A stretch of 35,767 nucleotides of DNA from Candidatus Omnitrophota bacterium (GCA_028717055.1 JAQUOO010000001.1:1-35767); one strand, 5' to 3'. Counted from the stretch's first letter, positions 6,958-32,686 are shown. The notes: generated from the letters alone by a model not told the origin. Program-made: numbers and translations.

Positions 6958-7036
6958 GGTAAATTTTGCAGATGGTCGGTTAATGAGGGTGATCCATGAA
7001 TTATCGGAGAGATGGTTTATAACACATGGAAGGGCT

Positions 7037-8197: not shown

Positions 8198-8231
8198 ATT
8201 GTAAGATTTCCTTTTTTAGGATAAAACTACT

Positions 8232-9425: not shown

Positions 9426-9616
9426 AATTCCTGAAACCGCAGTTCCTCTTGTTTTTCCGCGTAATTAGTCTATAATACATACCTATAGAAACAGAGAGGC
9501 TCCTCTTCATTACATACGAGAGGGGCTAAAATTTTATTTCGCCCGCCTGAAACTCCCTATTGTTTTTGTCTCTAATACCGGGTAGAGACGAGCTTTTTTA
9601 TTGAGGATTTTATCGC

Positions 9617-10114: not shown

Positions 10115-10146
10115 TAATTGAAGGCGCAAGCTAAAAAGGGATAGGT

Positions 10147-10896
10147 ATGAAGAATTCTTTATGCAAGAAGAACTATAAAATTACTACCAGAAATTGGTTT
10201 AACCGTTGGTCAAATAAATATGACCAGACCTTGGGAAGAATCGGCTTTCACAGGGAATTGCTGGATTTAGTGGTGAGGAGTAGTAAGGTTAAGGATTGCG
10301 ATAAGGTTTTGGATATCGGCTGCGGTACGGGATTGCTTAGCTTGAGGTTATTGCAGAAAGCCGGTTGCTCCATTACCGGCATTGATATTTCCGAGGAGAT
10401 GCTCGCAATATTTAAAGGCAAAATAAAAGAGTCAGGTTTAGAGCAAAAAATCGAATCCAGGTTAATGGATATCGATTCACTTAATTTCAAGAACAACACA
10501 TTTGATGCGGCGGTGTCTTCCGTTGTTCTGCATCATTTGAAGGATAAGCCCAAGGCATTAAAGAAAATATATAAACTTCTTAAGCCGGGAGGGCTTTTTG
10601 TCATCGGCGAAGTTGATATGGATTCTACCGGCAGCCATGCTGACACGAAGAGGCTTCAACGTATGTTACGCGTTTTAGAACAAGAATGGATCCCGGCATT
10701 AAGAGATGCGGGCGTTGAAGCTTTTGCGCAGATGTATAGCAATGGGATAAAGCATATTTTGAATCAAGGCGAGTATTGCTTAAGCCTCAAACAATGGGCT
10801 GCGATTTGCAGGAAAGCGGGCTTTAGCCGGGTTACTATTAAGAGGGTTCCGCATTATAAATGTTTTGGCGTAGTGGTAGCTAAGAAGCCCGGATAG
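10147..10896 (+). CDS. class I SAM-dependent methyltransferase
   Basis: Motif I VLDIGCGTGLLSLRL, then GIDISEEML and AAVSSVVLHHL. Confidence 0.75.
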   Translation: MKNSLCKKNYKITTRNWFNRWSNKYDQTLGRIGFHRELLDLVVRSSKVKDCDKVLDIGCGTGLLSLRLLQKAGCSITGIDISEEMLAIFKGKIKESGLEQKIESRLMDIDSLNFKNNTFDAAVSSVVLHHLKDKPKALKKIYKLLKPGGLFVIGEVDMDSTGSHADTKRLQRMLRVLEQEWIPALRDAGVEAFAQMYSNGIKHILNQGEYCLSLKQWAAICRKAGFSRVTIKRVPHYKCFGVVVAKKPG

Positions 10897-10901
10897 AATA
10901 G

Positions 10902-11240
10902 AGGCTTCTTCTTTTGAAATACGGCGCTAATATCAATGCCAGACGCGTTGATGACGGCTCAACGCCTTTGTATATCGCAGCATTCAAGAGCGGTAAAAAG
11001 GGTCATGTCGAAGCAGCGAGGGTTCTTCTTGAGAATAACGCGGATGTTAATATGAAGGCAAACAACGGATCAACCGCGCTTTCGGTCGCCATATTTCGCA
11101 ATAATACCGGGATGATAGATCTATTGCGTCGATATGGAGCAAAACAGGGAATGGTGAATAAACGGGGAACGAAAAACCGTCCGGATTTTGAAGCCTATGA
11201 TCGCAATAGCGGTTGCAGGTCTTTTTACGTGTTTGACTGA
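10902..11240 (+). pseudogene. 5'-truncated ankyrin-repeat gene remnant
   Basis: The frame opens right after a TAG at 10899-10901 and starts mid-repeat (RLLLLKYGANINARRVDDGSTPLYIAA...). It has no ATG, only a TTG at 10914, and retains about 2.5 ankyrin repeats. Confidence 0.5.
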
Positions 11241-18398: not shown

Positions 18399-21077
18399 AT
18401 GAGTGAAGCCGAAGCAAGGCAGGTTATTGATGGGTTATTAAGAGAAGCAGGTTGGATTATTCAAGATGTCCGTAAGATTAATCTTTCTGCGGGCAAGGGA
18501 GTCGCTATCCGCGAATTTCCCACCAAATCCGGCCCGGCCGATTACCTGCTTTTTGTCGACCGCAAAGCCATCGGCACCGTGGAAGCCAAAGCCGAAGGCA
18601 CCACGCTTTTAGGCGTGGCCGAGCAAACCGCCCGCTACAACGCTTCCATCCCGGAGAACCTGCCGCACGTTGACGATGTTCTTCCTTTTGCCTATGAATC
18701 CACCGGCATTGAAACCTTTTTCCGCAGCCAGCGCGATCCCGATCCCCGTTCCCGCCGCGTCTTTGCCTTCCATACCCCGGAAACCTTGGCCGCCTGGATC
18801 GACGAGCCGGAAACTCTGCGCCAACGCCTGCGCGAACTGCCGCCTTTAGAATCCTATAATCTGCGCCAGTGCCAGATTGAAGCCATTAACCATCTGGAAG
18901 TTTCCCTGCATGACAACCGCCCCCGCGCGCTCCTGCAAATGGCCACCGGCAGCGGCAAAACTTACACCGCCATCAGTGAGATCTATCGGCTGATTAAATT
19001 CGCCCAAGCCAAACGCGTGCTTTTCCTGGTTGACCGCTGTTCTCTCGGCCGCCAGGTCAAAAAAGAATTCCAGAACTACATCCCTTTTGACGACAACCGC
19101 GCTTTTACCGATCTCTATATCGTCCAGCACATGACCACCAACGTCTTTGACCAGGACGCCAAAGTCTGCATCACCACCATCCAGCGCCTTTTCTCCATGC
19201 TCAAAGGCGATCAGGATCTGGACGCCAGCCTCGAAGAACGCTCGCTCTATGAATCCACTTCTCCCGACATCGACCCCCAGGCCGTCAAATTCCGGGGCAA
19301 AATCCCCATTGAAACCTTTGATTTCATCATCGTTGACGAATGCCACCGCTCCATCTATAACCTCTGGCGCCAGGTTCTGGAATACTTTGATTCCTTTATC
19401 ATCGGCCTTACCGCCACTCCTTCAAACCAGACCATCGGCTTCTTTAATAAGAACCTGGTTATGGAATACGACCACAACCGGGCAGTGGCGGATAAAGTCA
19501 ACGTCGGCTTTGACGTTTACCGCATCCGCACCCAGACCACGGAAGAGGGCGGTAAAATTCCCTCCGGATTTTACGTGGACAAACGCGACAAACAAACCCG
19601 CCAGGTGCGCTGGGAAAAACTGGATCAAGACCTGGATTACACCCCGGACCAGCTTGACCGCAGCATCGTGGTCAAAGACCAGATCCGCACGGTCATCCGC
19701 GAGTTTAAGGAAAAACTTTTTACGGAAATTTTCCCCGGCCGCAGCGAAGTCCCCAAAACCCTGATTTTTGCCAAAGACGACAGCCACGCCGAGGACATTA
19801 CCGGGATTGTGCGCGAAGAATTCGGCAAAGGCAATGATTTCTGCAAGAAAATCACCTACCGCACCCAGGAAAATACCGATGACCTGATCGCCGCCTTCCG
19901 CAACAGCTACAATCCCCGGATTGCCGTAACCGTGGACATGATTTCCACCGGCACGGATATCAAGCCCCTGGAATGTATCTTATTCATGCGGGACGTCAAA
20001 TCCGCGGTCTATTTCGAGCAGATGAAAGGCCGCGGCACCCGGGTGATTGATTCCGACGACTTGCTGACCGTAACTCCCGACGCCAAAGCCAAGACGCATT
20101 TTGTTATTGTCGACGCCGTCGGCGTCTGCGAAAGCGAGAAGAGCCAGACCACCACCCTTGACCGTCAGAAAAGCGTGCCTACGCCCAAGCTTCTGAACAA
20201 TGTCGCCATCGGCATCCGGGATAACGATACCCTGTCCAGCTTGGCGGCGCGTTTATCCCGTTTAAACCTGGAATTAGAAGAAAGAGACATCCAGCGGATC
20301 AAAGAAGTATCCGGCGGCAAGACTTTAACCAATATCGTCAACGATTTGATGTCCGTGCTCGACCCGGATATTGCCCTGGATCGGGAAAAAGCCTGCGCTC
20401 CGTTTGATCAACCGGATTTTCGTGATTTGCTTACCGCTTTACAAACCAAGTCCGAGCAAACCATTGACACCACCACCGTGGATACAGTTATCCAATCCGG
20501 ATTTGACCAGCAAGCCCGGGAAAAAGCCTCATCCCTGGTTAAGAAATTCGAGCAGTTTATCGCCGAAAACAAAGATAAAATCACCGCTTTGCAGATTATC
20601 TACAATCTGCCTTACAAAAAACGCCACATCACCTATGAAGAGATCCGCGACTTAGCCGAGAAGATCGAAATGCCGCCTTACGGTTTTACCACCGATGCCC
20701 TCTGGCAGGCCTATCAGCAATTAGAAAAATCCAAAGTCCGCCCGGCTTCGATTCAGAAACAATTAACCGACATTATCTCGTTGGTTCGTTTTGCCACCCA
20801 CAAAGAAGAAGTCCTGGAGCCGTTCAAAGAACACGTCGAGCACCATTTCCAGGAATGGCTGAAAAACCAGCAAACTCTGGGTAAAACCTTTACCGCAAGG
20901 CAAATCCAATGGCTGACCATGATCTGCGACCACATCGCCGGTTCCGGCAGCCTGGCCAAACAAGATTTTCTTCTGCCGCCCTTTAGCGGCAGCGGCGGGA
21001 TTATTAAAGCGCAGGAAGTATTTGGGGATGAGTTGGATGAGGTAATTGAGGAGTTGAATACGGAGTTGGTGGGGTAA
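18399..21077 (+). CDS. hsdR: Type I restriction enzyme R subunit (nuclease, SF2 helicase and EcoEI_R_C-like tail)
   Basis: N-terminal PD-(D/E)xK region (ADYLLFVD...GTVEAKAEG). Helicase motif I QMATGSGKT and motif II IIVDECHR. C-terminal QIQWLTMICDHIAGSG...GGIIKAQEVFG. Confidence 0.9.
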   Translation: MSEAEARQVIDGLLREAGWIIQDVRKINLSAGKGVAIREFPTKSGPADYLLFVDRKAIGTVEAKAEGTTLLGVAEQTARYNASIPENLPHVDDVLPFAYESTGIETFFRSQRDPDPRSRRVFAFHTPETLAAWIDEPETLRQRLRELPPLESYNLRQCQIEAINHLEVSLHDNRPRALLQMATGSGKTYTAISEIYRLIKFAQAKRVLFLVDRCSLGRQVKKEFQNYIPFDDNRAFTDLYIVQHMTTNVFDQDAKVCITTIQRLFSMLKGDQDLDASLEERSLYESTSPDIDPQAVKFRGKIPIETFDFIIVDECHRSIYNLWRQVLEYFDSFIIGLTATPSNQTIGFFNKNLVMEYDHNRAVADKVNVGFDVYRIRTQTTEEGGKIPSGFYVDKRDKQTRQVRWEKLDQDLDYTPDQLDRSIVVKDQIRTVIREFKEKLFTEIFPGRSEVPKTLIFAKDDSHAEDITGIVREEFGKGNDFCKKITYRTQENTDDLIAAFRNSYNPRIAVTVDMISTGTDIKPLECILFMRDVKSAVYFEQMKGRGTRVIDSDDLLTVTPDAKAKTHFVIVDAVGVCESEKSQTTTLDRQKSVPTPKLLNNVAIGIRDNDTLSSLAARLSRLNLELEERDIQRIKEVSGGKTLTNIVNDLMSVLDPDIALDREKACAPFDQPDFRDLLTALQTKSEQTIDTTTVDTVIQSGFDQQAREKASSLVKKFEQFIAENKDKITALQIIYNLPYKKRHITYEEIRDLAEKIEMPPYGFTTDALWQAYQQLEKSKVRPASIQKQLTDIISLVRFATHKEEVLEPFKEHVEHHFQEWLKNQQTLGKTFTARQIQWLTMICDHIAGSGSLAKQDFLLPPFSGSGGIIKAQEVFGDELDEVIEELNTELVG

Positions 21078-21136
21078 AAGTTAGAAAACATCTATGGGTA
21101 TAAGATGTTTAAGGAAAGTAGTTTCTTAACATAAAA

Positions 21137-23998
21137 ATGATAGAAAATTTACTTGATCATTTTAGAAAAATTTGGGGCAAACGGCAGCTAGTTTTATACA
21201 TTATTTTTTGTTTGATTGTTTTGGTAGCTCTTTGGGTAATTCTGTTAGATGTTTCAATGCCAAGCGGTTTTATTGATTATTTGCTATTGGTTGCCGCGTT
21301 CATAATTTTATTACCGGTTTTCTTCTTATTTTCTAATGAGCTAAAAAAGGAAAATATTTGGCATGCTCATTCTTGGTGTTATTATGTTATTCGGTTATTA
21401 GTTTTCACCCCAATATTATATTTTATCTATAAACTTTGTAAACTGGGTTGGCATTCTATATCTGCGTATTCTATTTTTATATTTGCTGCTCCTGTTTGGT
21501 TAATTACGTTTATATTTTATAAAAATATCAGAATAGAATTTGGTGATAAATGGATTTTTGCTCCAGATTCAGTTGGTAAAAATGGCGATAAATTCAATTT
21601 TAAAAGCTCATCAGAACGTATTGCTAACAGAATCATTAACGATGATTCATCTCTAAAGGTATATCTACTTGATGGTAGCCAAGGTTACGGTAAATCATCT
21701 TATGCCAGAATGATAGTGGAATCTTTAGGAAATCCTAAGGATGTTCTTTATACCTATGTTTCTTTAACGGAAACCAATGAAGAAAACGATTTGAGTAAGC
21801 TATTTGAAGAACGCTGGGAAATAACGTTAGCAGAGAGGTATCCTAGGATTTGTTCTGGTTGTTTTGATGGTATTGCAGAAATTATTCGTATTCCAGAAAC
21901 GCGGTTTTCGTTAAAGGATTTGTTTATAATCTTTAAATATATAGATTTCCCAATTAATAAAACTAAAGTGATAGAAAACAAATCCGAATCTAGTGCTGTT
22001 AAATATTGCTCAGAAAAGAATGCAAGATTATTTAGATGCGTTTCTAAAATACATGAGAAAGTGTGGGCAATTGTTTTTGATGAAGTTGATCGCGCATTGC
22101 CACGAGAAATTTACCGATTAGTAGAAATTGTTGAGCGATTTAAATACCTAGAGGCAGGGGAATTTCCAGTTAAACTGCGGTTTTTTATTTGTGTATCTCG
22201 TGAGAGGCTTGATGGAATATTTGAGGATGTTAAAGAGACTAATGATAAGCCATTAGGCGGATTCATTAAGGACTTCTTCGATTTAAAAAATCAAGATACT
22301 ATTATTTCTCTTCCTCTTGTTTCCTTCAAGAAACGTTGGCAATTCGTAAGAGGACTACTCAAGAATATCTATAAAAATGGACATGAGCTATCTGTATATA
22401 AAAATACTATGATTTTTTCGGGTATTTCTAATACCGTTGCGAATTTACTGACTTCTGAACAATCTTTACAGGTTGCAATTAAATTATTATGCGAGGAATC
22501 TCCCAGGGTAGCAAAGAAATGTATTAATTCAGCATCTTTTTGGAATGGTGTGTTTTTTAAAAAAGGTGCGGTTGGATATATCTATATACGTTTCAGCGAT
22601 CTTGTTTTAATGGAATATATACGAACTCGATATAAATTTCTGTGGAATTTTATGGAAAAGACTATTGAGCAAATACTCCCTGAGGAAAATGAAGATAAGA
22701 AATTATTTGATATGAATGACTATAAAACTAGGCTTAGAATAGAAGAGACTACGGCTGCAGCTTTTGGTACTTCAAAGCAAACATTATCTCCCCAACAGAA
22801 ATTAGCAGGTTGGATTAGAGAATATTATCCTGGAATAGAAGAGAAACTTTTAGATAGAGCAATACAAATTTTTACCGCAGCAGCTTTTTGTTATATCCAG
22901 TATTTTGATACTTCTCCACGCGCCGTAGTAGGAAACTCTCTTGGAAACGGATGGAATCTATATAGATATCTTAGTTTAAGTGGGGACTATTATGAATTTG
23001 ATAAATTAGAAATGTGGTATTTAGAACATAAAAACAAAGAGATCGGAGGCGGAGGTGTTTTTGCAAAGGTTAAAAGTTCAAAGGATTTAATACGTTATGC
23101 TTTAAATATTTGCCAAATTAAAGATGTTCCCCCAAGAGTTTTATTAGATACGGCTAAAGAGTTATGGAGTAGGCTAAGATCAAAAAGAATTAAATTTTCC
23201 AAATATAATTATCATGATAATAGTTTTAGGGTAACCTCTATTGCTAGAATTCCCCCGTTGCTTTATTTAATACTCCGAGATGAGAAAAAACCGATTGCTG
23301 AAAGTAATGAAGCTGAAGAAGCTATTAAATTATTCATCGATATTCTTCGTTCACAAGATGTCGAAATTGAGCTTAAATTGTCTTTACTAGAATACATTAA
23401 GTCCTACGAGGTAATTGGCAGGCCTTATGGTCCGGAGATGCACATTTTATTTTATAAGAACCTATTAAATACAGAATATGGGAATGAAGTTAAAACTGCC
23501 TATAGCTATGTTTTTGATGATTTTAAAAAAAGATATTTAGACAATAAAAATAATAATATTTATGAATTAGAAGGAAATGCTTTATATGTTTTATATAATA
23601 TTTGGTCAGGAGAAAAGAATGGGCAGGAAATAAATAGAATTCACGAAATAGCTGAAAGGTTTCTTGATAAGGACAAAGAAACCATATTGAAACTTTGGAG
23701 TTGCCTAAAAGACCCTCAAGAGCTTAGCGTTGATATCAAAGATGTTATAAAACCAAATTCATTTAATATATTTCTTTTTGTTGATCTTGATAAATTAATT
23801 GAAGCGACAGATGTCGCAATTAAAAAAGGCAACCCTGCGTTTTCTGAAAAAGTTGAAAAATACAGAAGCCTTTCTTTAACAGGGAGGTTAAAGGTAGAAA
23901 CGCTTATTATACCAAAAGAAGATACACTTAGAAGTTTCATAAACAGTCTTTTAAAAAAAAGAAATCAATCGGATGATGGCTATGAGCAAAGAAATTAA
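21137..23998 (+). CDS. KAP-family P-loop NTPase with four N-terminal transmembrane helices
   Basis: Four hydrophobic helices within residues about 18-128. Walker A LLDGSQGYGKSSYARM (nt 21674-21700). Walker B VWAIVFDEVDRALPREIYRLVEIVERFKYL, matching the KAP hhhhDD/ExDR signature. The C-terminal 600 aa or so look alpha-helical and match nothing I recognise. A hand-counted sample at 21201-21300 is 34% GC. Confidence 0.65.
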   Translation: MIENLLDHFRKIWGKRQLVLYIIFCLIVLVALWVILLDVSMPSGFIDYLLLVAAFIILLPVFFLFSNELKKENIWHAHSWCYYVIRLLVFTPILYFIYKLCKLGWHSISAYSIFIFAAPVWLITFIFYKNIRIEFGDKWIFAPDSVGKNGDKFNFKSSSERIANRIINDDSSLKVYLLDGSQGYGKSSYARMIVESLGNPKDVLYTYVSLTETNEENDLSKLFEERWEITLAERYPRICSGCFDGIAEIIRIPETRFSLKDLFIIFKYIDFPINKTKVIENKSESSAVKYCSEKNARLFRCVSKIHEKVWAIVFDEVDRALPREIYRLVEIVERFKYLEAGEFPVKLRFFICVSRERLDGIFEDVKETNDKPLGGFIKDFFDLKNQDTIISLPLVSFKKRWQFVRGLLKNIYKNGHELSVYKNTMIFSGISNTVANLLTSEQSLQVAIKLLCEESPRVAKKCINSASFWNGVFFKKGAVGYIYIRFSDLVLMEYIRTRYKFLWNFMEKTIEQILPEENEDKKLFDMNDYKTRLRIEETTAAAFGTSKQTLSPQQKLAGWIREYYPGIEEKLLDRAIQIFTAAAFCYIQYFDTSPRAVVGNSLGNGWNLYRYLSLSGDYYEFDKLEMWYLEHKNKEIGGGGVFAKVKSSKDLIRYALNICQIKDVPPRVLLDTAKELWSRLRSKRIKFSKYNYHDNSFRVTSIARIPPLLYLILRDEKKPIAESNEAEEAIKLFIDILRSQDVEIELKLSLLEYIKSYEVIGRPYGPEMHILFYKNLLNTEYGNEVKTAYSYVFDDFKKRYLDNKNNNIYELEGNALYVLYNIWSGEKNGQEINRIHEIAERFLDKDKETILKLWSCLKDPQELSVDIKDVIKPNSFNIFLFVDLDKLIEATDVAIKKGNPAFSEKVEKYRSLSLTGRLKVETLIIPKEDTLRSFINSLLKKRNQSDDGYEQRN

Positions 23999-24665
23999 TA
24001 TAGTTATTTTATGGAATATTTTTTGTAATGCCTTACCACAGGTTATATCTTTTTTAGCGGGGTTTTTCACCGCCATATTTGCCCAGCCAATCAGGGAAAT
24101 GTTATTTAAACCTTGTTTGGAATTAAGTTTTAACAACACTAATGATTTTATATCTTTGACTCCAGAAAGTGGGCGCATGGAAGGTAAGCCAGCGCAATTT
24201 AAAGCTTATTATATAAGAGTAAAAGTAACTAATAATAAAAATATAACAGCCCAAAATTGTAAGGCTTATTTAGTTAATATAGAGAAACTAAATACTGAGA
24301 GCATTTTTAAATCAACCATTTATTGTGATAGTATACCTTTAGCATGGTCTTGTCAGAATATCGGAGAACAGTATGAAGGAATTAATATTAATAAAGGTGT
24401 AAATCAATTTGTAGATATTGTTACCACCAGGCATCTTGTTACTGAGGGGGATATATTTTATCCCAAAATGCAACAGCCAGATAATTCTGATATTCTATAT
24501 CCACAGATTAAATTATTGCCATTTAGGTATGAAAGTATATTTAAAGAGAAAGGAACTTTTCGTTTTACTATTCAAGTAACTTCCGCGAATGCCGATCCGC
24601 GTAATATTAGAATTGTATTGGTTTGGAATGGTAAGTGGGATAAGTTTGATGTATTACAAGGTTAG
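23973..24665 (+). CDS. membrane-anchored hypothetical protein (single N-terminal TM, beta-rich body)
   Basis: Candidate ATGs at 23973, 23976 and 23982 all overlap the end of the KAP gene (stop at 23996-23998), which suggests translational coupling. TM segment VILWNIFCNALPQVISFLAGFFTAIFA. No recognisable motif. Confidence 0.5.
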   Translation: MMAMSKEINIVILWNIFCNALPQVISFLAGFFTAIFAQPIREMLFKPCLELSFNNTNDFISLTPESGRMEGKPAQFKAYYIRVKVTNNKNITAQNCKAYLVNIEKLNTESIFKSTIYCDSIPLAWSCQNIGEQYEGININKGVNQFVDIVTTRHLVTEGDIFYPKMQQPDNSDILYPQIKLLPFRYESIFKEKGTFRFTIQVTSANADPRNIRIVLVWNGKWDKFDVLQG

Positions 24666-24763
24666 GCAACGCAATCCATGACGATAAAAGCTATTTAAAA
24701 AGAAATTAGTATTGAATCCGTTATATGTTGAAAGTCGTTTGGCATTATTGAAAAGGGATAGAG

Positions 24764-25882
24764 ATGCACAAGAAGTGTACTCTTTGCGGTAGTGAGATAA
24801 TAAAAGAGAATGATTCTGAAGAGCATGTCATTCCACAGGCAATAGGTGGACGTTTAACGGTAAAAGGTTTTATCTGTAAAGGATGTAATGGTAAGAGTGG
24901 ACAAGAGTGGGATGCAGTTTTAGCTAAGCAGTTAAATCCCTTGTCATTGTTTTTCGGTATAAAGCGTGAACGTGGGCAAGCCCCTTCTCAAAAGTTCCCA
25001 ACATCTACTGGTGGAGAATTTGAACATCATACTGATGGCAGTCTTTCTTTAGTGAAACCGGAATTCCATGTTAGGAAAGTTGATGGTAAAACGGAGATAA
25101 AGATTGTTGCGCGTTCAGATAAAGAATTAAACCGATTATTAAAAGGGCTGAAAAAGAAATATCCTCAAGTTAATATTGGAGATTTAAAAGCTAAAGCAAC
25201 TCATGAAACAATCCATCCTGATGGGTTCTTCCACTATAAGCTGAATGCTGGCGGTGAGAAGGCTGGTAGATCTCTTGTTAAAACAGCAATTGCTTTTGCG
25301 TATAGCATGGGTATTCCAATATCTCATTATGCAGATGCTTTAAGATATTTGAAAGAAAATAAATGCAACCCGCCGTTCGGTTATTATTCACAAGATGTAT
25401 TAATTAAACGTCCTATTGGTATTCCATTGCATTGCGTTGCGATTATCGGTGATCCGGAAGTGAAGCTTCTTTTATGTTATATAGAATATTTTTGCTTTGA
25501 GAGAGTAGTTATTTGTTTATCTGAACAATATGAAGGAGAAAAAATATCTAAACTTCACGCTTTAGATCCCGTATCTGGGGAGAGCATAGATATTGGTATT
25601 GATTTCCCTATTAAAGATTTAAAGGTTAAAGACTTATATGAGTATAAACTTTTTTCTCCACAAATGGTAGAGGAAGCTTTAGGTAATGTTATCGGCCCGC
25701 GCTTGAAAATAAAGCAAGATCAGGAGAGGAATGAAGTGATCGATAGGGCTATAAATACAGCTATTAAAAATAGCGGTTGTAAACCAGGAGAACCTTTTAC
25801 GGCGGAGCATATTAAGAAGATGGCCGATAATATTGCAGCGCAGATGCTGCCGTATATTATTCATATAAGAACGCGAAAATAA
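24764..25882 (+). CDS. HNH endonuclease domain protein with about 300-aa uncharacterised C-terminal region
   Basis: N-terminal CTLCGSEI...SEEHVIPQAIGGR...FICKGCNGKSG (nt 24776-24889) gives CxxC ... EH ... CxxCN, an HNH beta-beta-alpha-Me finger. Its stop at 25880-25882 is 1 nt before the hsdS ATG. Confidence 0.7.
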   Translation: MHKKCTLCGSEIIKENDSEEHVIPQAIGGRLTVKGFICKGCNGKSGQEWDAVLAKQLNPLSLFFGIKRERGQAPSQKFPTSTGGEFEHHTDGSLSLVKPEFHVRKVDGKTEIKIVARSDKELNRLLKGLKKKYPQVNIGDLKAKATHETIHPDGFFHYKLNAGGEKAGRSLVKTAIAFAYSMGIPISHYADALRYLKENKCNPPFGYYSQDVLIKRPIGIPLHCVAIIGDPEVKLLLCYIEYFCFERVVICLSEQYEGEKISKLHALDPVSGESIDIGIDFPIKDLKVKDLYEYKLFSPQMVEEALGNVIGPRLKIKQDQERNEVIDRAINTAIKNSGCKPGEPFTAEHIKKMADNIAAQMLPYIIHIRTRK

Positions 25883-25883
25883 G

Positions 25884-27143
25884 ATGACCGATTGCGTTAA
25901 ACTTAATGAAATAGGGACGATTTATTCTGGGGGAACACCTAGAACGAGTGTCACTAAATATTGGGATGGTAATATTGTTTGGGTGACTCCGAAAGATCTT
26001 AGTGAGGTAACATCTGTCTCTATAATAGATTCAACTCGGAAACTCACTAAATTGGGATTAAAAGAATCTTCTGCACAATTAATCCCCGCAGGTTCCGTGG
26101 TTCTTTCAAGTCGTGCCCCTATAGGATACGTTGCAATTGTTGATGTTGATTTTGCTACTAATCAGGGATGTAAATCAATAAAACCAGTAGCGTCCATCTA
26201 CAATAGATATGTTTATTACTATTTAAAATCGCAGACAAAAGAATTAAATCAACGTGGAAGCGGCACAACTTTTCTTGAACTATCAAAAGCTGCATTCTCA
26301 AATTTTGAGATTCCTATTTGTCCTCTTTTAGAACAAAAACGTATTGTCGCCAAGATTGAAAGTTTGTTTTCGCGGCTGGATAGCGCCAAGGATTCGCTGG
26401 AGCGTGTGCGCCAGGAGATCAAGCGCTATCGCCAGTCAGTGCTTAAATCGGCGTTTGAGGGGAAGTTAACGGGAAGCGTTAAATTTGAAATAAAGAAAAT
26501 ATGTGATGTAGGAGAAGTTATTACTGGTAATACCCCAAGTAAGAGAAGAAAAGATTATTATGGCGGTGATGTAAATTTCTTTAAGCCGACAGACCTTAAT
26601 GCTGGGATATTGATGTATGGCTCGCGAGAGAAATTGTCTAAGTTAGGTCTAGAAGAGGGGAGATTTGCCAAGGCTGGCTCAGTTTTGGTGACATGTATTG
26701 GTGCAACTATAGGGAAAACAGCTTTTATGAATGAAGACGGAGCCTTTAATCAGCAGATAAACGCTGTGATTCCACAGAAAGAGATAAGCGGAAAGTATCT
26801 TTATTATTTCTTTATTTCAAAAGGTTTTCAGGACGCGTTGATTGAAGGAGCGTCCTCAACAACTATGCCAATCATTAACAAAACAAGATTTGAAAATCTT
26901 ATTGTTTCTATTTGTGATCTTAAGCAACAGATTAAGATAGTGGAATCTATTGAGTCTCGTTTTGAACGGTCTAAGACATTGGAAGAAGCGGTCGAGCAAG
27001 GCATAACGAAAATTGAGCAACTAAAACAGAGTATCTTAAAGAAAGCCTTCGAAGGCAAGCTGGTTGAACCCGATCCAAATGATGAACCGGTGGAGCTATT
27101 ACTAGAGAGAATACAGAAAGAAAAGAATAAAATAAATTTTTAA
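25884..27143 (+). CDS. hsdS: Type I restriction-modification specificity subunit
   Basis: Two target-recognition halves, each followed by the conserved helical repeat: LLEQKRIVAKIESLFSRLD...RQSVLKSAFEGKL and DLKQQIKIVESIESRFE...KQSILKKAFEGKLV. Confidence 0.9.
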   Translation: MTDCVKLNEIGTIYSGGTPRTSVTKYWDGNIVWVTPKDLSEVTSVSIIDSTRKLTKLGLKESSAQLIPAGSVVLSSRAPIGYVAIVDVDFATNQGCKSIKPVASIYNRYVYYYLKSQTKELNQRGSGTTFLELSKAAFSNFEIPICPLLEQKRIVAKIESLFSRLDSAKDSLERVRQEIKRYRQSVLKSAFEGKLTGSVKFEIKKICDVGEVITGNTPSKRRKDYYGGDVNFFKPTDLNAGILMYGSREKLSKLGLEEGRFAKAGSVLVTCIGATIGKTAFMNEDGAFNQQINAVIPQKEISGKYLYYFFISKGFQDALIEGASSTTMPIINKTRFENLIVSICDLKQQIKIVESIESRFERSKTLEEAVEQGITKIEQLKQSILKKAFEGKLVEPDPNDEPVELLLERIQKEKNKINF

Positions 27144-27147
27144 TATT

Positions 27148-27576
27148 ATGGTTTCAGAGGAATACGAAAAAATTAATATCGCAGTTTCTTTGCTGGAAAC
27201 AGCTTGTAAATTATACAAAAAAGATGACTTTTTTGCTGTAATTAATCTCGCTGGAGCGAGTGAAGAGATCCTGGGTAAATATCTTAAGGCGAGAGGTAAA
27301 AAGAATGCATTAGAGTCGGATCGAGAAGCGCTTGTAGCAATAAATAAATATTTTGGGAAAGATTTAACCAATGAGAAAGCCACAATAATTTTAAATTATG
27401 TAAAGAATGCACTTAAACATTATAATGGGATAGACGATAGTGATAAGTTCATTTTAATGGATGCCCAAAGTGATTCTTCGTATTTACTTGTTAGAGCCTT
27501 AACTAATCTCTGGAGACTAGAGATGGAGTTAACTCCCATAATGAATGAAGTGTGGGAGATGATTGAGAAACGATAA
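27148..27576 (+). CDS. small alpha-helical protein, HEPN-like (non-canonical KNALKH in place of R-x4-H)
   Basis: 142 aa, starting 4 nt after the hsdS stop. AVINLAGASEEILGKYLKARG resembles the HEPN a-x-E-x-x-L-K helix. NYVKNALKH is at nt 27403-27420. This is a weak, motif-level call only. Confidence 0.35.
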   Translation: MVSEEYEKINIAVSLLETACKLYKKDDFFAVINLAGASEEILGKYLKARGKKNALESDREALVAINKYFGKDLTNEKATIILNYVKNALKHYNGIDDSDKFILMDAQSDSSYLLVRALTNLWRLEMELTPIMNEVWEMIEKR

Positions 27577-27602
27577 CGCTAGAGTGAGTAATGAGTAGTT
27601 CT

Positions 27603-27680
27603 ATGAGCGAGAATGAAATAGTCCAAAAGGTATGGAATTATTGCGATGTGCTGCGGGATGACGGGGCAGAAGAAATATAA
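27603..27680 (+). pseudogene. relic copy 1 of the hsdM 5' end (first 21 codons, then divergence and a stop)
   Basis: MSENEIVQKVWNYCDVLRDDG is identical in protein to the live hsdM N-terminus at 30400. There are 5 nt differences in 63 nt, all at synonymous third positions. Similarity ends at codon 22 and a TAA follows at 27678-27680. Confidence 0.85.
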
Positions 27681-27732
27681 ACGTATTTTAGATTGAAACC
27701 TATTTAATTATAAGTAGTTATGGCAAGAAATT

Positions 27733-27760
27733 ATTTATGTAAACTATAGTTTACATAAAT
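27733..27760. repeat. perfect 28-bp palindrome
   Basis: ATTTATGTAAACTA|TAGTTTACATAAAT, with exact 14+14 dyad symmetry. It ends 6 nt before the ATG at 27767. Confidence 0.9.
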
Positions 27761-27766
27761 TTCATT

Positions 27767-28251
27767 GTGCAAATTATGACGGTTGAATATACTACACAAT
27801 ATAGCGATTCTTCAAATTGGTTTAGACAGGCCAGAGAAATGTTTATTGTTTCTAAAATTCTTCGGGATGATTTTATGAACAGAAGAAAGAATCCCCCGAA
27901 GACGGAAGAAATGTTGGAATGTAGCGCGGGATTGCTTAAAGGGGCGATGTTCTTCTTAGGCTTATCGATAGAGAATGCTTTAAAAGGGTTTATATCAGAA
28001 TCGCGCCGAATGGAAGATTCCCCCGGAGTCATAATCTACGCAAATTAGCGACTTCGGCAAAGCAAAATCTTTCTCGCGAAGAACTTGTTTTATTAGATCG
28101 CCTGACGGTCTATATCAAGTGGGCAGGGAAATACCATATTCCGCTGGAGAAAGACGCTGATCAATTGAACACGTCGTTAAGGATGACTGTTCCTAATGAT
28201 TTCCGGATGGCAGAAAAATTGTTGATAGGTATGAAAGTATTTGGTGATTAA
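27767..28251 (+). pseudogene. HEPN-domain gene (classical PF05168-like) interrupted by a frameshift
   Basis: Frame A reads ...GLSIENALKGFISESRRMEDSP and stops at 28046-28048. The -1 frame continues with RSHNLRKLATSAKQNLSREELVLLDRLTVYIKWAGKYHIP...FGD and stops at 28249-28251. Together these give the HEPN pattern a-E-x-a-L-K ... H-x-L-x-x-L ... W-x-x-[RK]-Y. A C5 run at 28020-28024 is the likely indel site. Confidence 0.6.
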
Positions 28252-28336
28252 AACCAAAAAACGCTTTTGGGCGATTTCTTGAGAATTCTGTTAGATTTAT
28301 CGGTTCTGCGCGTCTATTGTTGTGGAGGCATAAACA

Positions 28337-28873
28337 ATGGACCAGCGCAAGCCAAATCGCCTAAAAGGTTACGATTATTCGCAGAATGGGTATTATTTTG
28401 TAACGATTTGCACGTATGGCAGGCAGGAATGGTTTGGGAAAATATCAAATGGGGATATGGAATTGAATACAAACGGTTGTATTGTATCCGCGTGTTGGAA
28501 TGATTTACCGAATCATTATCGGAATGTCGAATTGGATGAATTTATTGTAATGCCAAACCATGTGCATGGGATTATTGGGATTAATAATGTAGGGAACGGT
28601 TTGAAACCGTTCCCTACAACGGATCAATTAATACCATCCAAAACAAAAAACCACGGATTATCGGAAATTATCCGCGGATTAAAAACGTTTTCGTCACGGC
28701 GAATTAATGGAACAATTGAATCCGGCAATAAATTCCATTGGCAGAAATCGTTTTACGACCATATTATTCGGAATGAATTGTCGTTGAACCGCATTCGTGA
28801 ATATATTGTTAATAATCCAAGAAATTGGAACGAAGATGAGGAAAATATTTTTAAGGATAAGGGGAATTCATGA
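28337..28873 (+). CDS. IS200/IS605-type Y1 (HUH) transposase, RayT / REP-associated-like
   Basis: NRLKGYDYSQNGYYFVTICT, HUH motif MPNHVHGII, and the catalytic-Tyr region WQKSFYDHIIR. Solo gene with no tnpB. Confidence 0.75.
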   Translation: MDQRKPNRLKGYDYSQNGYYFVTICTYGRQEWFGKISNGDMELNTNGCIVSACWNDLPNHYRNVELDEFIVMPNHVHGIIGINNVGNGLKPFPTTDQLIPSKTKNHGLSEIIRGLKTFSSRRINGTIESGNKFHWQKSFYDHIIRNELSLNRIREYIVNNPRNWNEDEENIFKDKGNS

Positions 28874-28923
28874 GTGAAAATGAAATAGTCCAAAAAGTCT
28901 GGAATTACTGTATTATATTTTAG
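28870..28923 (+). pseudogene. relic copy 2 of the hsdM 5' end (first 14 codons)
   Basis: MSENEIVQKVWNYC followed by IIF and a stop. There are 3 nt differences from the live gene in 42 nt, all at synonymous third positions. Its ATG overlaps the transposase stop (ATGA). Confidence 0.8.
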
Positions 28924-28966
28924 TTGGGTCGTTACTAATGTGGTGATATAAGGGATCGAGATTAAT

Positions 28967-29746
28967 ATGGTTCAGGAAGCTGTGTGGCGATGGAATGTAA
29001 ATGATATTTGGCAGAGCTTTTCATCAATGTATCAGGAGATGGCTTTTTCTGATACAGCAACTAATACTATTGAGAGGTACCATCATTTAAGCGCGTGCCT
29101 TTTGTTTGGCGGGTGCGCTATTGAGTCTTTTTTGAATTCGAATATGAGAACTCATCTTAAGAAAAGCGAAGAATTGGAAGATAACGTGATCAAGCTGCTT
29201 CGCTATACCGCATTGCGTAAGAAGATTGAATCTTGGCCATCTGATATTTGCGGAGTCACAATCGACAAACAAGATCTAGATATCTTGCTAGAATTCCTTG
29301 ATCTCCGCAATGAAGTAACGCATAGAAAACGTAAGGATCATTCTTTATATAAAGAACTTGATGAAATATCTCCCATTAATTTTTTAGAAGCTGTGCAAAG
29401 AACATTTGTGCAGTTTTATTATGGACAGGGCAATTCTTTCCCTTATTGGTTACTTGGATGGAATTTTGTGGGGATGAATAGTGATTATACACATCCATGT
29501 TTAATGAATAACCAGCAATTTAAATATGCTTTGAATAGCATGGGGTTTAGAGTTCCCGCTAGTGACTATGGCGCTGCTAATGCATGGGAAGAAGAGAATA
29601 TGAAGGGGGTCGAAGCATTTTCCAGGTTGAAAAGAGATTATTACCTTAAAGCTCCGGATATAGAGCCGAAGAGTAAAATGTTTCACCGAGCTCCAAGATT
29701 ATGCAAGCGTTGGTGGGATAAGCAGCTTATTCTAGGGATAGATTAA
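28967..29746 (+). CDS. HEPN-domain protein with canonical R-x4-H motif
   Basis: 259 aa. GGCAIESFLNS helix and LDLRNEVTHRK (RNEVTH at nt 29306-29323), which matches the R-[NHQD]-x3-H signature of HEPN RNases. Confidence 0.55.
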   Translation: MVQEAVWRWNVNDIWQSFSSMYQEMAFSDTATNTIERYHHLSACLLFGGCAIESFLNSNMRTHLKKSEELEDNVIKLLRYTALRKKIESWPSDICGVTIDKQDLDILLEFLDLRNEVTHRKRKDHSLYKELDEISPINFLEAVQRTFVQFYYGQGNSFPYWLLGWNFVGMNSDYTHPCLMNNQQFKYALNSMGFRVPASDYGAANAWEEENMKGVEAFSRLKRDYYLKAPDIEPKSKMFHRAPRLCKRWWDKQLILGID

Positions 29747-29848
29747 TGTTTAAGAATTTCGGAGGCAAAGATACTTGAGGATACAGATGATTAATGGTTT
29801 GATAAAATTGAGCAGTTAAAAAGGCAAAACTCAAACAAAGGAGGGGCT

Positions 29849-30148
29849 GTGACTAAAGATAATAATGATTTAAAAAAGAAATTCCTTTCAGTGCTAAAAA
29901 TCATTGAAAGAATGCAGGATACAGAAACGAAAAACTTTATCAATAGAAATAATGGTGTCCCGATAGGCGTGGTCATGGGGGCAATGCACTATTTTGATAT
30001 GAAGGAGGTGCACGAAGTAGTAAGCGATATGTTGCAGTGTTTCGAGATTAAATTATCAAAATATTGCTTGACGCTTCCAAGTCCTGTTGATCAAACGAGT
30101 GAAACAGCTTTCTTGAGAACATGCGTTCTGCAAAAACGTAAAGATTGA
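29849..30148 (+). CDS. hypothetical small protein
   Basis: 99-aa ORF with a GTG start and AGGAGG 5 nt upstream. No recognisable motif. Confidence 0.4.
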   Translation: MTKDNNDLKKKFLSVLKIIERMQDTETKNFINRNNGVPIGVVMGAMHYFDMKEVHEVVSDMLQCFEIKLSKYCLTLPSPVDQTSETAFLRTCVLQKRKD

Positions 30149-30346
30149 TATCTGATTGTTATGGTAAACACGCATTAGTTGATTGGTTATCTCTAATTGT
30201 GGGTTTTTGTTTTAAAGCTGTAATTAAAACCATGGGAGGAGAAATGCTATATCAAACTTTAACATGTGGGGGCGCCCTGGCCCGACTATTAATCTTTGGG
30301 GGCAGCCAATGTTAATGATGCGCGTTAGCCAAGAAGGGCCAGAGCT

Positions 30347-30370
30347 AGGGTTCGATTCCCTTTGCCTCCA
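30347..30370 (+). other. tRNA/tmRNA 3'-end-like fragment (T-arm plus acceptor 3' strand), not an intact RNA gene
   Basis: AGGGTTCGATTCCCT (30347-30361) contains the canonical GGTTCGATTCC T-loop. It is followed by TTGCCTCC and A, with no encoded CCA. CTGGCCC (30277-30283) pairs with GGGCCAG (30336-30342) just upstream. It lies 30 nt before hsdM. Confidence 0.4.
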
Positions 30371-30399
30371 TTAATTTAGACAATTTAATAAGGATATGT

Positions 30400-31860
30400 A
30401 TGAGCGAAAATGAAATAGTCCAAAAGGTCTGGAATTACTGCGATGTTCTGCGGGATGATGGGGTCAGCTACGGCGATTATGTGGAGCAGTTGACCTATTT
30501 GCTGTTCCTGAAAATGTCCGATGAGCGGGATGAGTTGTTTCATGACAGCGAGATTCCGGCGAAGTATGACTGGAGGTCGCTTAAGAAACTGGAAGGCGAG
30601 CCGCTGGAGGGGCATTATATCACGGTGTTGCGGGAGTTGGGCAAACAGAAGGGGATTATCGGCAGGATTTTTAGCAAATCCCAGAATAAGATCCAGGATC
30701 CGGCTAAGCTGAAGCGGTTGATCAATATGATCGACGCCGAGAAATGGCTGGGGTTGGATATTGATATCAAGGGCGTGATTTATGAAGGGTTGCTGGAGAA
30801 GAATGCCCAGGATACCAAAGGCGGCGCCGGGCAGTATTTTACTCCCCGGCCTTTGATCAAGGCTATGGTGGAAGTGATGAAACCGCAATCGGGCATGAAG
30901 ATTTGCGATCCGGCTTGCGGCACCGGCGGGTTTTTGTTGAGTGCTTTTGATTATGTGATCAAGAATAATCCCGCCTTGTCCAAAGGCGGTAAGGAATTTA
31001 TGGTTAATGAGGCGTTGTATGGTGTGGATATCGTGGAATCGGTTGCCCGGTTGTGCGCAATGAATATGTATCTGCATGGAATCGGCTCCAAGCGCTGTCC
31101 GGTAGAAATGGCGGATTCTTTAGCGGCGAAAGGCAGCGAGCATTTTGACCTGGTCTTGACCAATCCGCCGTTCGGCAAGAAGAGTTCGACCACGGTTATC
31201 GCTGAAGACGGCAAGGCGGTGAAAGAAAAAGATTCCTATGAGCGCGATGATTTCTGGACCACGACTTCAAACAAGCAGCTGAATTTTGTCCAGCATATCG
31301 CCTCGATCCTGAAAGTCCACGGCCGGGCTGCGGTAGTGGTTCCGGATAACGTTTTATTTGAGGGCGGGGCAGGAGAGACGGTAAGAAGGAAGCTCCTGCA
31401 TGATTTTGACCTGCATACCATTTTGCGCCTGCCCACCGGTATTTTCTACGCCCAGGGAGTCAAGGCCAACGTGATCTTCTTCGACAAGAAGCCGGCGCAG
31501 GAAAAGCCCCGGACGTCCAAAATTTGGTTCTACGACCTGCGCACCAATAAACATTTTACCTTAAAAGAGAACACGCTAAAGTTCGAGGACCTGGCGGACT
31601 TCATTAAATGCTACAATCCGGACAACTGGGCCAAACGCAAAGAAAGCGAACGTTTTAAAGCGTATGATTATAACGAAATCCTCAAGCGCGACAAAGTAAG
31701 CCTGGACATCTTCTGGCTGAAAGACGAATCGCTGGAAGATTTAGAGAATCTGCCTGATCCTGATGAAATAGCTGAGGATATTGTGAAAGATCTAGAATCT
31801 GCGTTGGAGGAATTTAGTGGAGTATTGGAGGATTTAAAGATAAAGAAAGATAAGAAATAG
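30400..31860 (+). CDS. hsdM: Type I restriction-modification N6-adenine DNA methyltransferase subunit
   Basis: HsdM N-terminal helix MSENEIVQKVWNYCDVLRDDG. Motif I ICDPACGTGGFL and motif IV LVLTNPPFGKK. RBS AAGGA. Confidence 0.9.
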   Translation: MSENEIVQKVWNYCDVLRDDGVSYGDYVEQLTYLLFLKMSDERDELFHDSEIPAKYDWRSLKKLEGEPLEGHYITVLRELGKQKGIIGRIFSKSQNKIQDPAKLKRLINMIDAEKWLGLDIDIKGVIYEGLLEKNAQDTKGGAGQYFTPRPLIKAMVEVMKPQSGMKICDPACGTGGFLLSAFDYVIKNNPALSKGGKEFMVNEALYGVDIVESVARLCAMNMYLHGIGSKRCPVEMADSLAAKGSEHFDLVLTNPPFGKKSSTTVIAEDGKAVKEKDSYERDDFWTTTSNKQLNFVQHIASILKVHGRAAVVVPDNVLFEGGAGETVRRKLLHDFDLHTILRLPTGIFYAQGVKANVIFFDKKPAQEKPRTSKIWFYDLRTNKHFTLKENTLKFEDLADFIKCYNPDNWAKRKESERFKAYDYNEILKRDKVSLDIFWLKDESLEDLENLPDPDEIAEDIVKDLESALEEFSGVLEDLKIKKDKK

Positions 31861-31955: not shown

Positions 31956-31984
31956 TTGTAAACTATGACACCTAGTGTTATACT
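31956..31984 (+). promoter_or_regulatory. sigma70-like promoter for the downstream TA pair
   Basis: TTGTAA at 31956-31961, a 17-nt spacer containing ACAC-n3-GTGT, then TATACT at 31979-31984. Confidence 0.45.
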
Positions 31985-32001
31985 TTAGATGGAAAGGCAG
32001 T

Positions 32002-32376
32002 ATGAGGTATTTAAAGAATAACAGGTTTCAAAGAGATTTAAAAAACAATGGTTTGGATGACGAGAACTTAGAATCAGTATTAGACGATATTTTTGACGGC
32101 AGGGCAACACCGTTAGGAAGCAAGTTTTACAAGATTCGCGGGGCGAAAGAAGGGAAAGGTAAAAGAAGCGGGTTTAGAACCTTATTTTTCTGGAAAAAAG
32201 AGAAAATTATAGTTTTTTGTTTATTGTTCGCCAAGAATGAACAAGATAACTTAACTTCGGATGAAAAGAAAGTACTTAAAATTCTATCCAACGAATACGA
32301 TAAGTTGACAGATGGAGAAATTCAGCGGTTGATCAATGAGAAAACATTTACGGAGATTGGATATGTTAAGAAATAA
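32002..32376 (+). CDS. RelE/HigB-like addiction-module toxin (COG4737/DUF1044-like)
   Basis: The ATG at 32002 (RBS GGAAAGG) is preferred to the listed GTG at 31975, which lies inside the promoter. GSKFYKIRGAKEGKGKRSGFRTLFFWKKEKIIVFCLLFAKNEQDNL is characteristic of this family. Confidence 0.6.
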   Translation: MRYLKNNRFQRDLKNNGLDDENLESVLDDIFDGRATPLGSKFYKIRGAKEGKGKRSGFRTLFFWKKEKIIVFCLLFAKNEQDNLTSDEKKVLKILSNEYDKLTDGEIQRLINEKTFTEIGYVKK

Positions 32377-32686
32377 AAATAGTCATTCAAAAGTTATGGA
32401 TATGGTTGAAGAGGACCTGCATGCCATAAATAAGATCAAGGATACTTCTGAAAGCATTAGAAAGTTTAACAAGATTAGATATCTACCTCCGAAGCATTTC
32501 ACAAAAAACGATATAGTCAAAATTAGGTCAAATCTACACGTGAGCCAAGCGGTATTCGCTTTTCTTTTGAATGCCAGCGAAAGCACTGTTAAGAAATGGG
32601 AACTGGGCGCCAAGGAGCCCGGAGGCGCGAATGCCAGGTTATTGCAGATTATTGAAAAAAGGGGAGTTGAGATATTGAAAGTTTGA
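32363..32686 (+). CDS. XRE/HTH antitoxin (COG2944-like)
   Basis: C-terminal HTH LHVSQAVFAFLLNASESTVKKWELGAKEPGGANARLL. The ATG at 32363 overlaps the end of the toxin gene by 14 nt. The listed ATG at 32336 is also possible. Confidence 0.6.
   Translation: MLRNKNSHSKVMDMVEEDLHAINKIKDTSESIRKFNKIRYLPPKHFTKNDIVKIRSNLHVSQAVFAFLLNASESTVKKWELGAKEPGGANARLLQIIEKRGVEILKV

Follow-up and report, generated by a model that had tools for sequence, protein, structure and literature searches.

Probably unrelated, stand-alone candidate defence genes gathered in a split Type I restriction-modification operon of a Candidatus Omnitrophota bacterium

Independent defence genes embedded in Type I restriction-modification (R-M), BREX and DISARM operons are an established pattern, with PrrC and the TgvAB enzyme of V. 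cholerae VPI-2 as examples, and Payne et al. (2024) reported 3,231 embedded protein families in their "guilt by embedding" survey. PrrC is embedded almost exclusively in Type I R-M, and TgvAB and BrxU are modification-dependent enzymes embedded in R-M or BREX loci. PrrC and RloC consist of an ABC-type ATPase fused to a C-terminal anticodon nuclease. Among the KAP-family nucleoside triphosphatases (NTPases), single proteins combining transmembrane (TM) helices, a KAP NTPase and a large C-terminus devoid of recognised domains are potent antiphage defences (PLoS Biol 2026, PMC13552941), with EF_KAP and its relatives requiring Walker B and the C-terminal region and having been found through their linkage to serine recombinases. 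PifA, the classical KAP defence, underlies the exclusion of phage T7 by the F plasmid, acting abortively at the membrane and having no TM helices. KAP proteins reportedly have their TM helices, two or four in number, inside the NTPase domain. The QatABCD system joins a QatA-type KAP NTPase to QatB, the QueC-like QatC and the TatD protein QatD. The locus analysed here occupies positions 21137-25882 of a 35,767-bp contig from a Candidatus Omnitrophota bacterium (GCA_028717055.1, JAQUOO010000001.1), the whole of which is referred to as the window. It comprises three co-directional open reading frames (ORFs) between hsdR and hsdS, encoding a KAP-family NTPase (gene 1), a membrane-anchored protein (gene 2) and an HNH nuclease (gene 3), which the original prediction had taken as one defence system of NTPase sensor, membrane partner and HNH effector.

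Comparative analysis leads to a different picture, in which the trio is probably a set of unrelated, stand-alone candidate defence genes gathered in a split Type I R-M operon, and not one system. Homologue loci were collected for gene 1 (26), gene 2 (65) and gene 3 (23), amounting to 114 in total, and co-occurrence was assessed by searching six-frame translations with family profile hidden Markov models (HMMs), together with tblastn searches using the window proteins. With one locus, L109, set aside, the profile HMMs produced cross-matches in 0/26 gene 1, 0/65 gene 2 and 0/23 gene 3 loci, and tblastn gave the same result, with informative flanks present in 22 gene 1 loci (at least 2 kb downstream), 15 gene 2 loci and 18 gene 3 loci (at least 3 kb upstream for both). 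L109, the sole exception, is 100% identical to window positions 21046-26399 and represents a re-assembly, not an independent instance. Each of the three families occurs elsewhere without the other two. The original prediction had itself named a lack of co-occurrence among homologues as evidence against a three-gene system, and with no co-occurrence in the loci searched, that reading is not supported.

The sister Omnitrophica locus L002 provides the second line of evidence. Its hsdR and hsdM products are 86% and 89% identical to those of the window at the amino acid level, which identifies it as the same R-M locus in a relative, with the KAP proteins sharing 51% identity. The gene order in L002 is hsdR, KAP, hsdS, six unrelated genes and hsdM, with genes 2 and 3 absent and the KAP stop located 13 nucleotides (nt) from the hsdS ATG. 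Since the KAP gene directly precedes hsdS in L002, genes 2 and 3 constitute an indel relative to it. DNA similarity between the window and L002 breaks off precisely at the hsdR stop codon and picks up again where hsdM begins, with hsdS aligning through its conserved central and distal regions alone. The cargo of the two loci differs, and the hsd spacers therefore behave as cargo-swapping hot spots. The L002 cargo between hsdS and hsdM (6866-11160 of that locus) comprises six genes, including Hypoth_Ymh (Abi-like) and Fic, and is wholly unlike the window cargo; a Fic gene is also present 3' of the KAP gene in L003 and L004.

The junction between genes 1 and 2 preserves a trace of this history. 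The KAP proteins P0002 and P0003 end in ...LLK and ...LSK, respectively, while the window protein runs on with 14 residues, KRNQSDDGYEQRN. This 14-codon C-terminal extension with its stop (23954-23998, +) forms the left junction of the gene 2/3 indel, and the gene 2 ATG, 26 nt inside gene 1, falls within the extension that P0002 and P0003 lack. The overlap had been regarded as operon coupling; because the extension is absent from the closest gene 1 homologues, it is most plausibly a scar left by an insertion that would have removed the original KAP stop, and not a sign of translational coupling. The arrival of genes 2 and 3 may have been joint or separate, and they are never found together at other loci.

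Gene 1 (21137-23998, +) encodes a 953-amino-acid (aa) membrane-anchored KAP-family P-loop NTPase, a candidate stand-alone defence protein. Its NTPase core extends from Walker A (GSQGYGKSS, aa 180-188) to Walker B (FDEVDRA, aa 314-320), corresponding to 21674-22096 (+), and hydropathy peaks at aa 18-36, 48-66, 83-101 and 108-126 define a bundle of four N-terminal TM segments (aa 18-126; 21188-21514, +). All four hydrophobic segments precede Walker A, and neither the interval up to Walker B nor the remainder of the protein contains another, confirming the motifs and the membrane topology that had been proposed. Residues G183, G185, K186, S187, S188, D315 and E316 are invariant across 46 sequences, and 2-4 TM segments before Walker A with none after it are present in 37 of the 46 family members. 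Pfam KAP_NTPase is matched by 34 of the 46 full-length homologues (E <= 1e-3, best E 3e-17), and because of these matches the assignment of gene 1 to the KAP family, also part of the original prediction, holds at the level of the family, by transitivity. An exhaustive profile search of 1.84 billion representatives returned 198 matches at E <= 1e-3, of which 144 reached E <= 1e-30, with about 70 family matches being full-length (900-1020 aa) and collinear; judged from these matches, the clade is small, patchy and sharply bounded, with a fixed architecture.

The C-terminal module of gene 1 (aa ~446-939; 22472-23953, +) is private to the family, with no Pfam match and no PDB sequence match, and is the putative sensor/effector region. 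Split variants of the family include proteins of ~420 aa spanning profile positions 17-435 and proteins of ~500 aa spanning 447-945, with a split pair overlapping by 4 nt in L022 (9890-12645) and further split-gene members including P0266, P0270, P0273 and P0288. The break always falls near profile positions 435-447, therefore placing a domain boundary near residue 440 of gene 1 and suggesting that the N-terminal TM and NTPase half and the C-terminal half may be able to work in trans. Between the window protein and its sister-locus counterpart, identity amounts to 86% in the NTPase core (aa 176-345), 33% in the TM region and 43% in the C-terminal region, a pattern consistent with a conserved engine and fast-evolving sensor or effector parts. 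This contrast between core and flanks was also considered as proof of diversifying selection and dropped as such, a similar gradient being present family-wide; it is consistent with selection of that kind.

Gene 1 shares the overall plan of the EF_KAP class (PMC13552941), combining TM segments, a KAP NTPase and a large unassigned C-terminus in a single gene, with linkage to recombinases and mobile islands. It differs in that all four TM segments precede the NTPase, with none inserted, in its clade-private C-terminal module of ~500-600 aa and in its hosts, which are Omnitrophica, Patescibacteria and other small-genome bacteria; the likeness is one of architecture and context. The arrangement of its TM segments also departs from the inserted-TM feature of KAP proteins, as does PifA. 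A KAP-type P-loop is common to PifA and gene 1, and 21 of the 46 family members weakly match the PADLOC PifA model (PDLC02361), mainly over the Walker A region and with homologues scoring 15-24 bits, which is taken as superfamily kinship and not PifA membership; PifA resides on the F plasmid, whereas gene 1 has no plasmid homologues. Regarding QatABCD, the window protein has no QatA match, P0002 reaches 14 bits, and neither QueC nor TatD is present among the top 25 of 92 neighbour families. The PADLOC models of PrrC and RloC matched neither the window proteins nor their families, the location between hsd genes being a point of agreement. More broadly, scans of the window proteins with PADLOC v2, NCBIfam and PHROGs returned nothing meaningful, PDB sequence-profile searches with all three gene families gave noise only, and the absence of a match to any named system, previously proposed, was borne out by PADLOC v2 at E <= 0.01 for the three window proteins and the other cargo ORFs. 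The locus as a whole resembles other R-M-embedded defence genes in having foreign, co-directional genes between hsd genes and a methylase-less nuclease beside a Type I enzyme. It differs in that its three proteins show no homology to the PrrC, RloC or GmrSD/TgvAB models and in that a transposase and no fewer than three unrelated single-gene modules have built up in two spacers.

Homologues of gene 1 occur in Omnitrophica, in Saccharibacteria and other Patescibacteria, in Elusimicrobia-related groups and in Rickettsiales metagenome-assembled genomes. Type I R-M genes adjoin the homologue in Omnitrophica (window and L002) and in Saccharibacteria L007, which has the arrangement hsdR-hsdM-hsdS-KAP and a gap of 7 nt. 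In 6 loci, large serine recombinases are encoded within four genes of the homologue, and L024 carries integrases on both sides. Also found nearby are N6_N4 methylases, AAA_21, a Schlafen-type helicase and certain housekeeping genes, and fragmented gene 1 copies are present in L011, L016 and L026. No conserved partner emerged, with 117 neighbours belonging to 92 Pfam families and with all-vs-all clustering of 838 neighbour ORFs likewise revealing none. Searches of plasmids, GenBank phages and IMG/VR yielded no gene 1 homologue.

Gene 3 (24764-25882, +) encodes a solitary 372-aa nuclease with an HNH_5 finger and a domain of ~310 aa with an unmatched fold. The finger (aa 5-57; 24776-24934, +) matches Pfam HNH_5 (PF14279) at 49.3 bits against a cut-off of 27.5, in line with the HNH finger noticed earlier, and no other Pfam domain was detected. 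Residues C8, H21, C38, C41 and N42 are invariant in the family, the catalytic positions included, with C5 and E20 present in at least 90% of sequences. The AlphaFold2 model (predicted local distance difference test, pLDDT, 91.9; predicted template modelling score, pTM, 0.86) displays a beta-beta-alpha finger, a mixed alpha/beta body and a helical tail. Foldseek returned nothing at E <= 1e-3 in PDB or BFVD, and PADLOC models gave no match against 46 family members. Gene 3 shares its finger, with Cys4, His and Asn, with the HNH_5 His-Me finger nucleases, including the uncharacterised 'group 8' (Jablonska et al. 2017); its ~310-aa remainder matches no PDB or BFVD fold, and it is neither PtuB nor another PADLOC HNH component.

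Gene 3 homologues form more than 262 clusters of ~370-380 aa, mostly from Proteobacteria and of one common architecture, and are solitary in all contexts examined. The Aeromonas homologue is flanked by a DUF4365 gene on one side and an Mrr_cat endonuclease on the other; that of an Acetobacter plasmid adjoins hsdS-hsdR-SprT-MazEF; and the copy carried by a P. syringae plasmid has a Type ISP enzyme and a PIN toxin-antitoxin (TA) pair close by. A metagenomic contig places the homologue in a ParB-methylase/SIR2-like/M78-HTH island, Pseudomonas at the edge of a DUF927-primase element, and Paraglaciecola next to a group II intron reverse transcriptase and integrases. Overall, homologues were identified on 21 plasmids and 6 IMG/VR contigs, and in 0 GenBank phages. 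Because the gene is solitary, methylase-less and often beside restriction genes, these contexts suggest, by analogy, a candidate stand-alone restriction-like nuclease whose unique domain would impose non-self specificity. Examined as a Type IV enzyme of the McrA or GmrSD kind, gene 3 showed no modified-base reader, DUF262 or DUF1524 domain in Pfam or Foldseek searches, and the parallel with TgvAB, GmrSD and BrxU would be one of functional analogy. A stretch of 0.85-1.4 kb without a called gene precedes the homologues of Paraglaciecola and Pseudomonas, L092-L097 (~7160-8000) and L103 (6630-8000), and could hold a small gene or RNA.

Gene 2 (23973-24665, +) encodes a 230-aa protein (227 aa in the NCBI annotation) with one N-terminal TM helix followed by a beta-sandwich. 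In its AlphaFold2 model (pLDDT 92.9), residues 5-44 form a long N-terminal helix, which is followed by the sandwich, and no family was found in Pfam, NCBIfam, PHROGs or PADLOC, consistent with its earlier description as a single-pass protein lacking a recognisable domain. Foldseek matches to the arrestin/TXNIP N-domain, ApaG and the Kir cytoplasmic domain were rejected as homology, being generic beta-sandwich similarities at template modelling scores (TM-scores) of 0.2-0.4. Relatives of gene 2 comprise ~47 clusters at 38-69% identity, with the N-terminal helix conserved and with C96, C118, D119 and W125 invariant. The three closest relatives (window, L107 and L108) all adjoin restriction genes, the order in L107 being Type ISP enzyme, gene 2, a 189-aa ORF and GmrSD_N, and that in L108 being hsdR-like, hsdS, hsdM, gene 2, a pP_pnuc_1 nuclease and, further along, PLDc_2. 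Distant members occupy unrelated contexts: 7 of the 65 loci have RmuC upstream, and 3 have RecJ downstream. No conserved neighbour was found among 148 neighbours belonging to 124 families, the best partner signal in the 838-ORF clustering being RmuC upstream of gene 2, and the gene was not found in GenBank phages, plasmids or IMG/VR.

The surrounding operon is anchored on the left by hsdR (18399-21077, +), a Type I restriction subunit with an EcoEI-type C-terminus (Pfam EcoEI_R_C 1e-43, ResIII 3e-39), and on the right by hsdM (30400-31860, +; Pfam N6_Mtase 1e-73 and HsdM_N), both conserved. Between them lies hsdS (25884-27143, +), with two target-recognition domains (Pfam Methylase_S 8e-50, two stretches). 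A spacer of 59 nt (21078-21136, +) separates hsdR from gene 1, 98 nt separate gene 2 from gene 3, and the hsdS start codon follows the stop of gene 3 after 1 nt. The ORF coordinates, the 59-nt gap, the overlap of genes 1 and 2 and the single nucleotide before hsdS were all reproduced as originally given, as were the hand counts of the drop in GC content after the hsdR stop (57/100 at 18601-18700 and 34/100 at 21201-21300). GC content is 0.52 in hsdR, 0.32 in gene 1, 0.32 in gene 2, 0.37 in gene 3, 0.38 in hsdS and 0.49 in hsdM, with 0.43 for the contig, and the view of the three genes as cargo of foreign composition within a Type I hsd operon is supported, at 0.32-0.37 against 0.52 for hsdR. 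As an AT-rich module, the trio was confirmed in its low GC content, although not in its end at 25882, since low GC continues from the hsdR stop up to the hsdM start at 30400. Positions 21137-25882 are the first part of a low-GC cargo region of ~9.3 kb (21078-30399) nested in a split hsdR...hsdS...hsdM operon. Relative to the contig mean, hsdR and hsdM lie above and the cargo (0.32-0.39) below, so that both are atypical, in opposite directions.

The 8-bp hairpin described in the first spacer (21086-21110) does exist and is weak, with a minimum free energy of -9.2 kcal/mol and z = -1.95. It is not conserved in L002, and its candidacy as a regulatory element was dropped for these two reasons. A promoter and terminator scan, in which the number of sites was not above that of shuffled sequence, found no terminator-like site in the 59-nt spacer or between the cargo genes. 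As the cargo genes are co-directional with hsdR and have no terminator in between, they are probably co-transcribed with it.

The second cargo stretch, from hsdS to hsdM (27148-30399, +), contains ORFs of 142 aa and 259 aa (the latter at 28967-29746), a RAYT-type Y1 transposase, two remnants of the hsdM 5' end and a relic resembling transfer-messenger RNA (tmRNA). The first 41-78 nt of hsdM (ATGAGCGAAAATGAAATAGTCCAAAAGGTCTGGAATTACTG...) are present as three direct copies at 87-95% identity (27589-27666, 28870-28910 and 30386-30463), bracketing two inserted cassettes that carry the RAYT transposase and the 259-aa ORF, respectively. An extra hsdM 5' remnant is likewise present in L002 (9819-9873). 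These repeats suggest that cassettes were inserted one after another, or exchanged, through recombination at the start of hsdM. The RAYT/REP-associated Y1 transposase-like ORF (28337-28873, +) matches NCBIfam REP_Tyr_transpos at 1e-18, below the cut-off, with Pfam Y1_Tnp covering just aa 104-160, and contains a perfect palindrome with a 14-bp stem (TGTAGGGAACGGTTTCAAACCGTTCCCTACA) at 28588-28618; possible interpretations are a REP-like element and an interrupted gene. The tmRNA-like relic (30268-30373, +) is 106 nt long and lies 27 nt upstream of the hsdM ATG, and still has its 5' acceptor strand along with the T-arm/acceptor at the 3' end (AGGGUUCGAUUCCCUUUGCCUCCA), but lacks ~300 nt of the tmRNA body. 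It scores 23.3 bits (E 3.4e-6) against Rfam RF00023, for which the gathering score is 47, ARAGORN made no call at this site, and the relic may represent an ssrA-derived attachment-site remnant. Directly 3' of hsdM, within 31975-32686 (+), lies a RelE-family toxin ORF (Pfam RelE 4e-24), overlapped by a 116-aa ORF (32336-32686) that is a possible antitoxin. The RelE-type ORF extends the defence and TA character of the hsd neighbourhood.

Under the preferred reading of stand-alone genes, the cargo would represent autonomous single-gene modules that arrived separately in the hsd spacers, all of them probably transcribed together with hsdR. Gene 1 would function as a membrane-anchored KAP NTPase switch for a single-protein antiphage response at the membrane, with the P-loop core driving and with the TM bundle and the private C-terminal module of ~500 aa sensing or executing; its models are F-plasmid PifA and the TM-KAP-unknown-C-terminus proteins of 2026 (PMC13552941). 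Gene 3 would act as a solitary HNH DNA nuclease whose large unique domain limits cleavage to non-self, for example modified, DNA, and would complement the methylation-sensitive Type I enzyme, as TgvAB, GmrSD and BrxU do in other R-M or BREX loci. Gene 2 would be a membrane-tethered beta-sandwich protein hitch-hiking in the same islet. Taken gene by gene, the evidence tips slightly towards a defence role for gene 1, makes such a role a tentative proposal, a little short of an even chance, for gene 3, and leaves it doubtful for gene 2. A second-line-defence role of genes embedded in R-M loci is plausible.

Several points weigh against this reading. Many metagenomic gene 2 contigs are short, which limits the co-occurrence test, and the tight packing here and in L109 is compatible with ad hoc cooperation of the trio in this genome. 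The window gene 1 protein itself reaches 16.8 bits against Pfam KAP_NTPase (PF07693; E 0.0044), below the threshold of 20, and its match to the PifA model (11.6 bits, E 0.018) is confined to positions 15-69 of the 720-position profile, largely its Walker A part. The proposed defence roles derive from guilt by association and family membership. Additionally, some gene 1 homologues of Rickettsiales sit in conserved, housekeeping-looking synteny, gene 2 homologues lie between rmuC and recJ in several genomes, and the gene 3 homologue of Psychrobacter stands singly amid housekeeping and metabolic genes, so that non-defence roles are possible for the latter two.

An unlikely alternative that draws on these contexts sees no defence genes here and assigns gene 1 to signalling or assembly as a membrane NTPase of small-genome bacteria, gene 2 to the envelope and gene 3 to selfish, homing-type HNH elements, in a spacer that tolerates insertions. 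The group II intron beside gene 3 in Paraglaciecola, and the transposase and repeat scars within the same hsd spacer region, would fit such an origin. The class to which gene 1 is likened, however, has experimentally validated antiphage members (PMC13552941), and R-M, TA or recombinase genes repeatedly accompany genes 1 and 3, as well as the three closest relatives of gene 2. Gene 3, moreover, has no intron or intein context and carries a conserved extra domain of 310 aa, and none of the three genes was found in GenBank phages.

A PrrC-like arrangement, in which gene 1 would be held by the Hsd complex and fire upon phage anti-restriction with genes 2 and 3 as passengers, is improbable. Adjacency to hsd genes is seen in 2 of ~24 independent lineages, with most gene 1 homologues having no R-M gene within four genes, and this counts against it despite the position of gene 1 first after hsdR in both Omnitrophica loci and directly 3' of hsdS in Saccharibacteria L007. 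PrrC itself offers a precedent, as an NTPase that is hardly ever found outside Type I R-M loci; the PrrC and RloC models nevertheless show no similarity to gene 1, and its membrane anchor fits a PifA-like autonomous mode better. The broader proposition that the TM4-KAP-Cterm family acts as a dedicated membrane guardian of Type I enzymes in small-genome bacteria (Omnitrophica, Patescibacteria), coupled to the Hsd complex in the manner of PrrC and firing at the membrane once phage anti-restriction proteins disable R-M, with a hypervariable C-terminal module serving as decoy or sensor, is likewise improbable, and in a weaker variant gene 1 could, in this lineage, also have taken on the neighbouring HNH nuclease as an improvised effector. 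A single membrane-associated system, in which the KAP NTPase would sense infection or loss of restriction, gene 2 serve as adaptor and the HNH protein as effector, is highly improbable, since its packing (co-directional genes, the gene 1/gene 2 overlap, the single nucleotide between gene 3 and hsdS, no terminator-like sites in between, and the same arrangement in the second assembly, L109) and its common design of sensor NTPase plus nuclease are set against the lack of any co-occurring pair in 114 loci, the identity of L109 with the window, the KAP gene standing alone in L002, an overlap arising from a read-through extension absent in homologues, and the fixed stand-alone architecture of each family.

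With the reading as stand-alone genes, the false lead of a new three-gene system gives way to three singly testable candidate genes. The locus is a new instance of the established embedding pattern, not a new kind of system, and offers a clean natural example of an R-M operon as a landing pad, with conserved hsdR and hsdM, swapped cargo and duplicated hsdM 5' ends. Genes 2 and 3 represent uncharacterised families, with gene 3, widespread and having a confidently predicted fold that matches nothing in PDB or BFVD, being a reasonable candidate for a new single-protein restriction activity. To our knowledge, few defence systems are known from Omnitrophica and bacteria of the Candidate Phyla Radiation (CPR). 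Gene 1 would extend the KAP-NTPase antiphage class described in 2026 to a distinct clade, characterised by an N-terminal four-TM bundle and a private C-terminal module.

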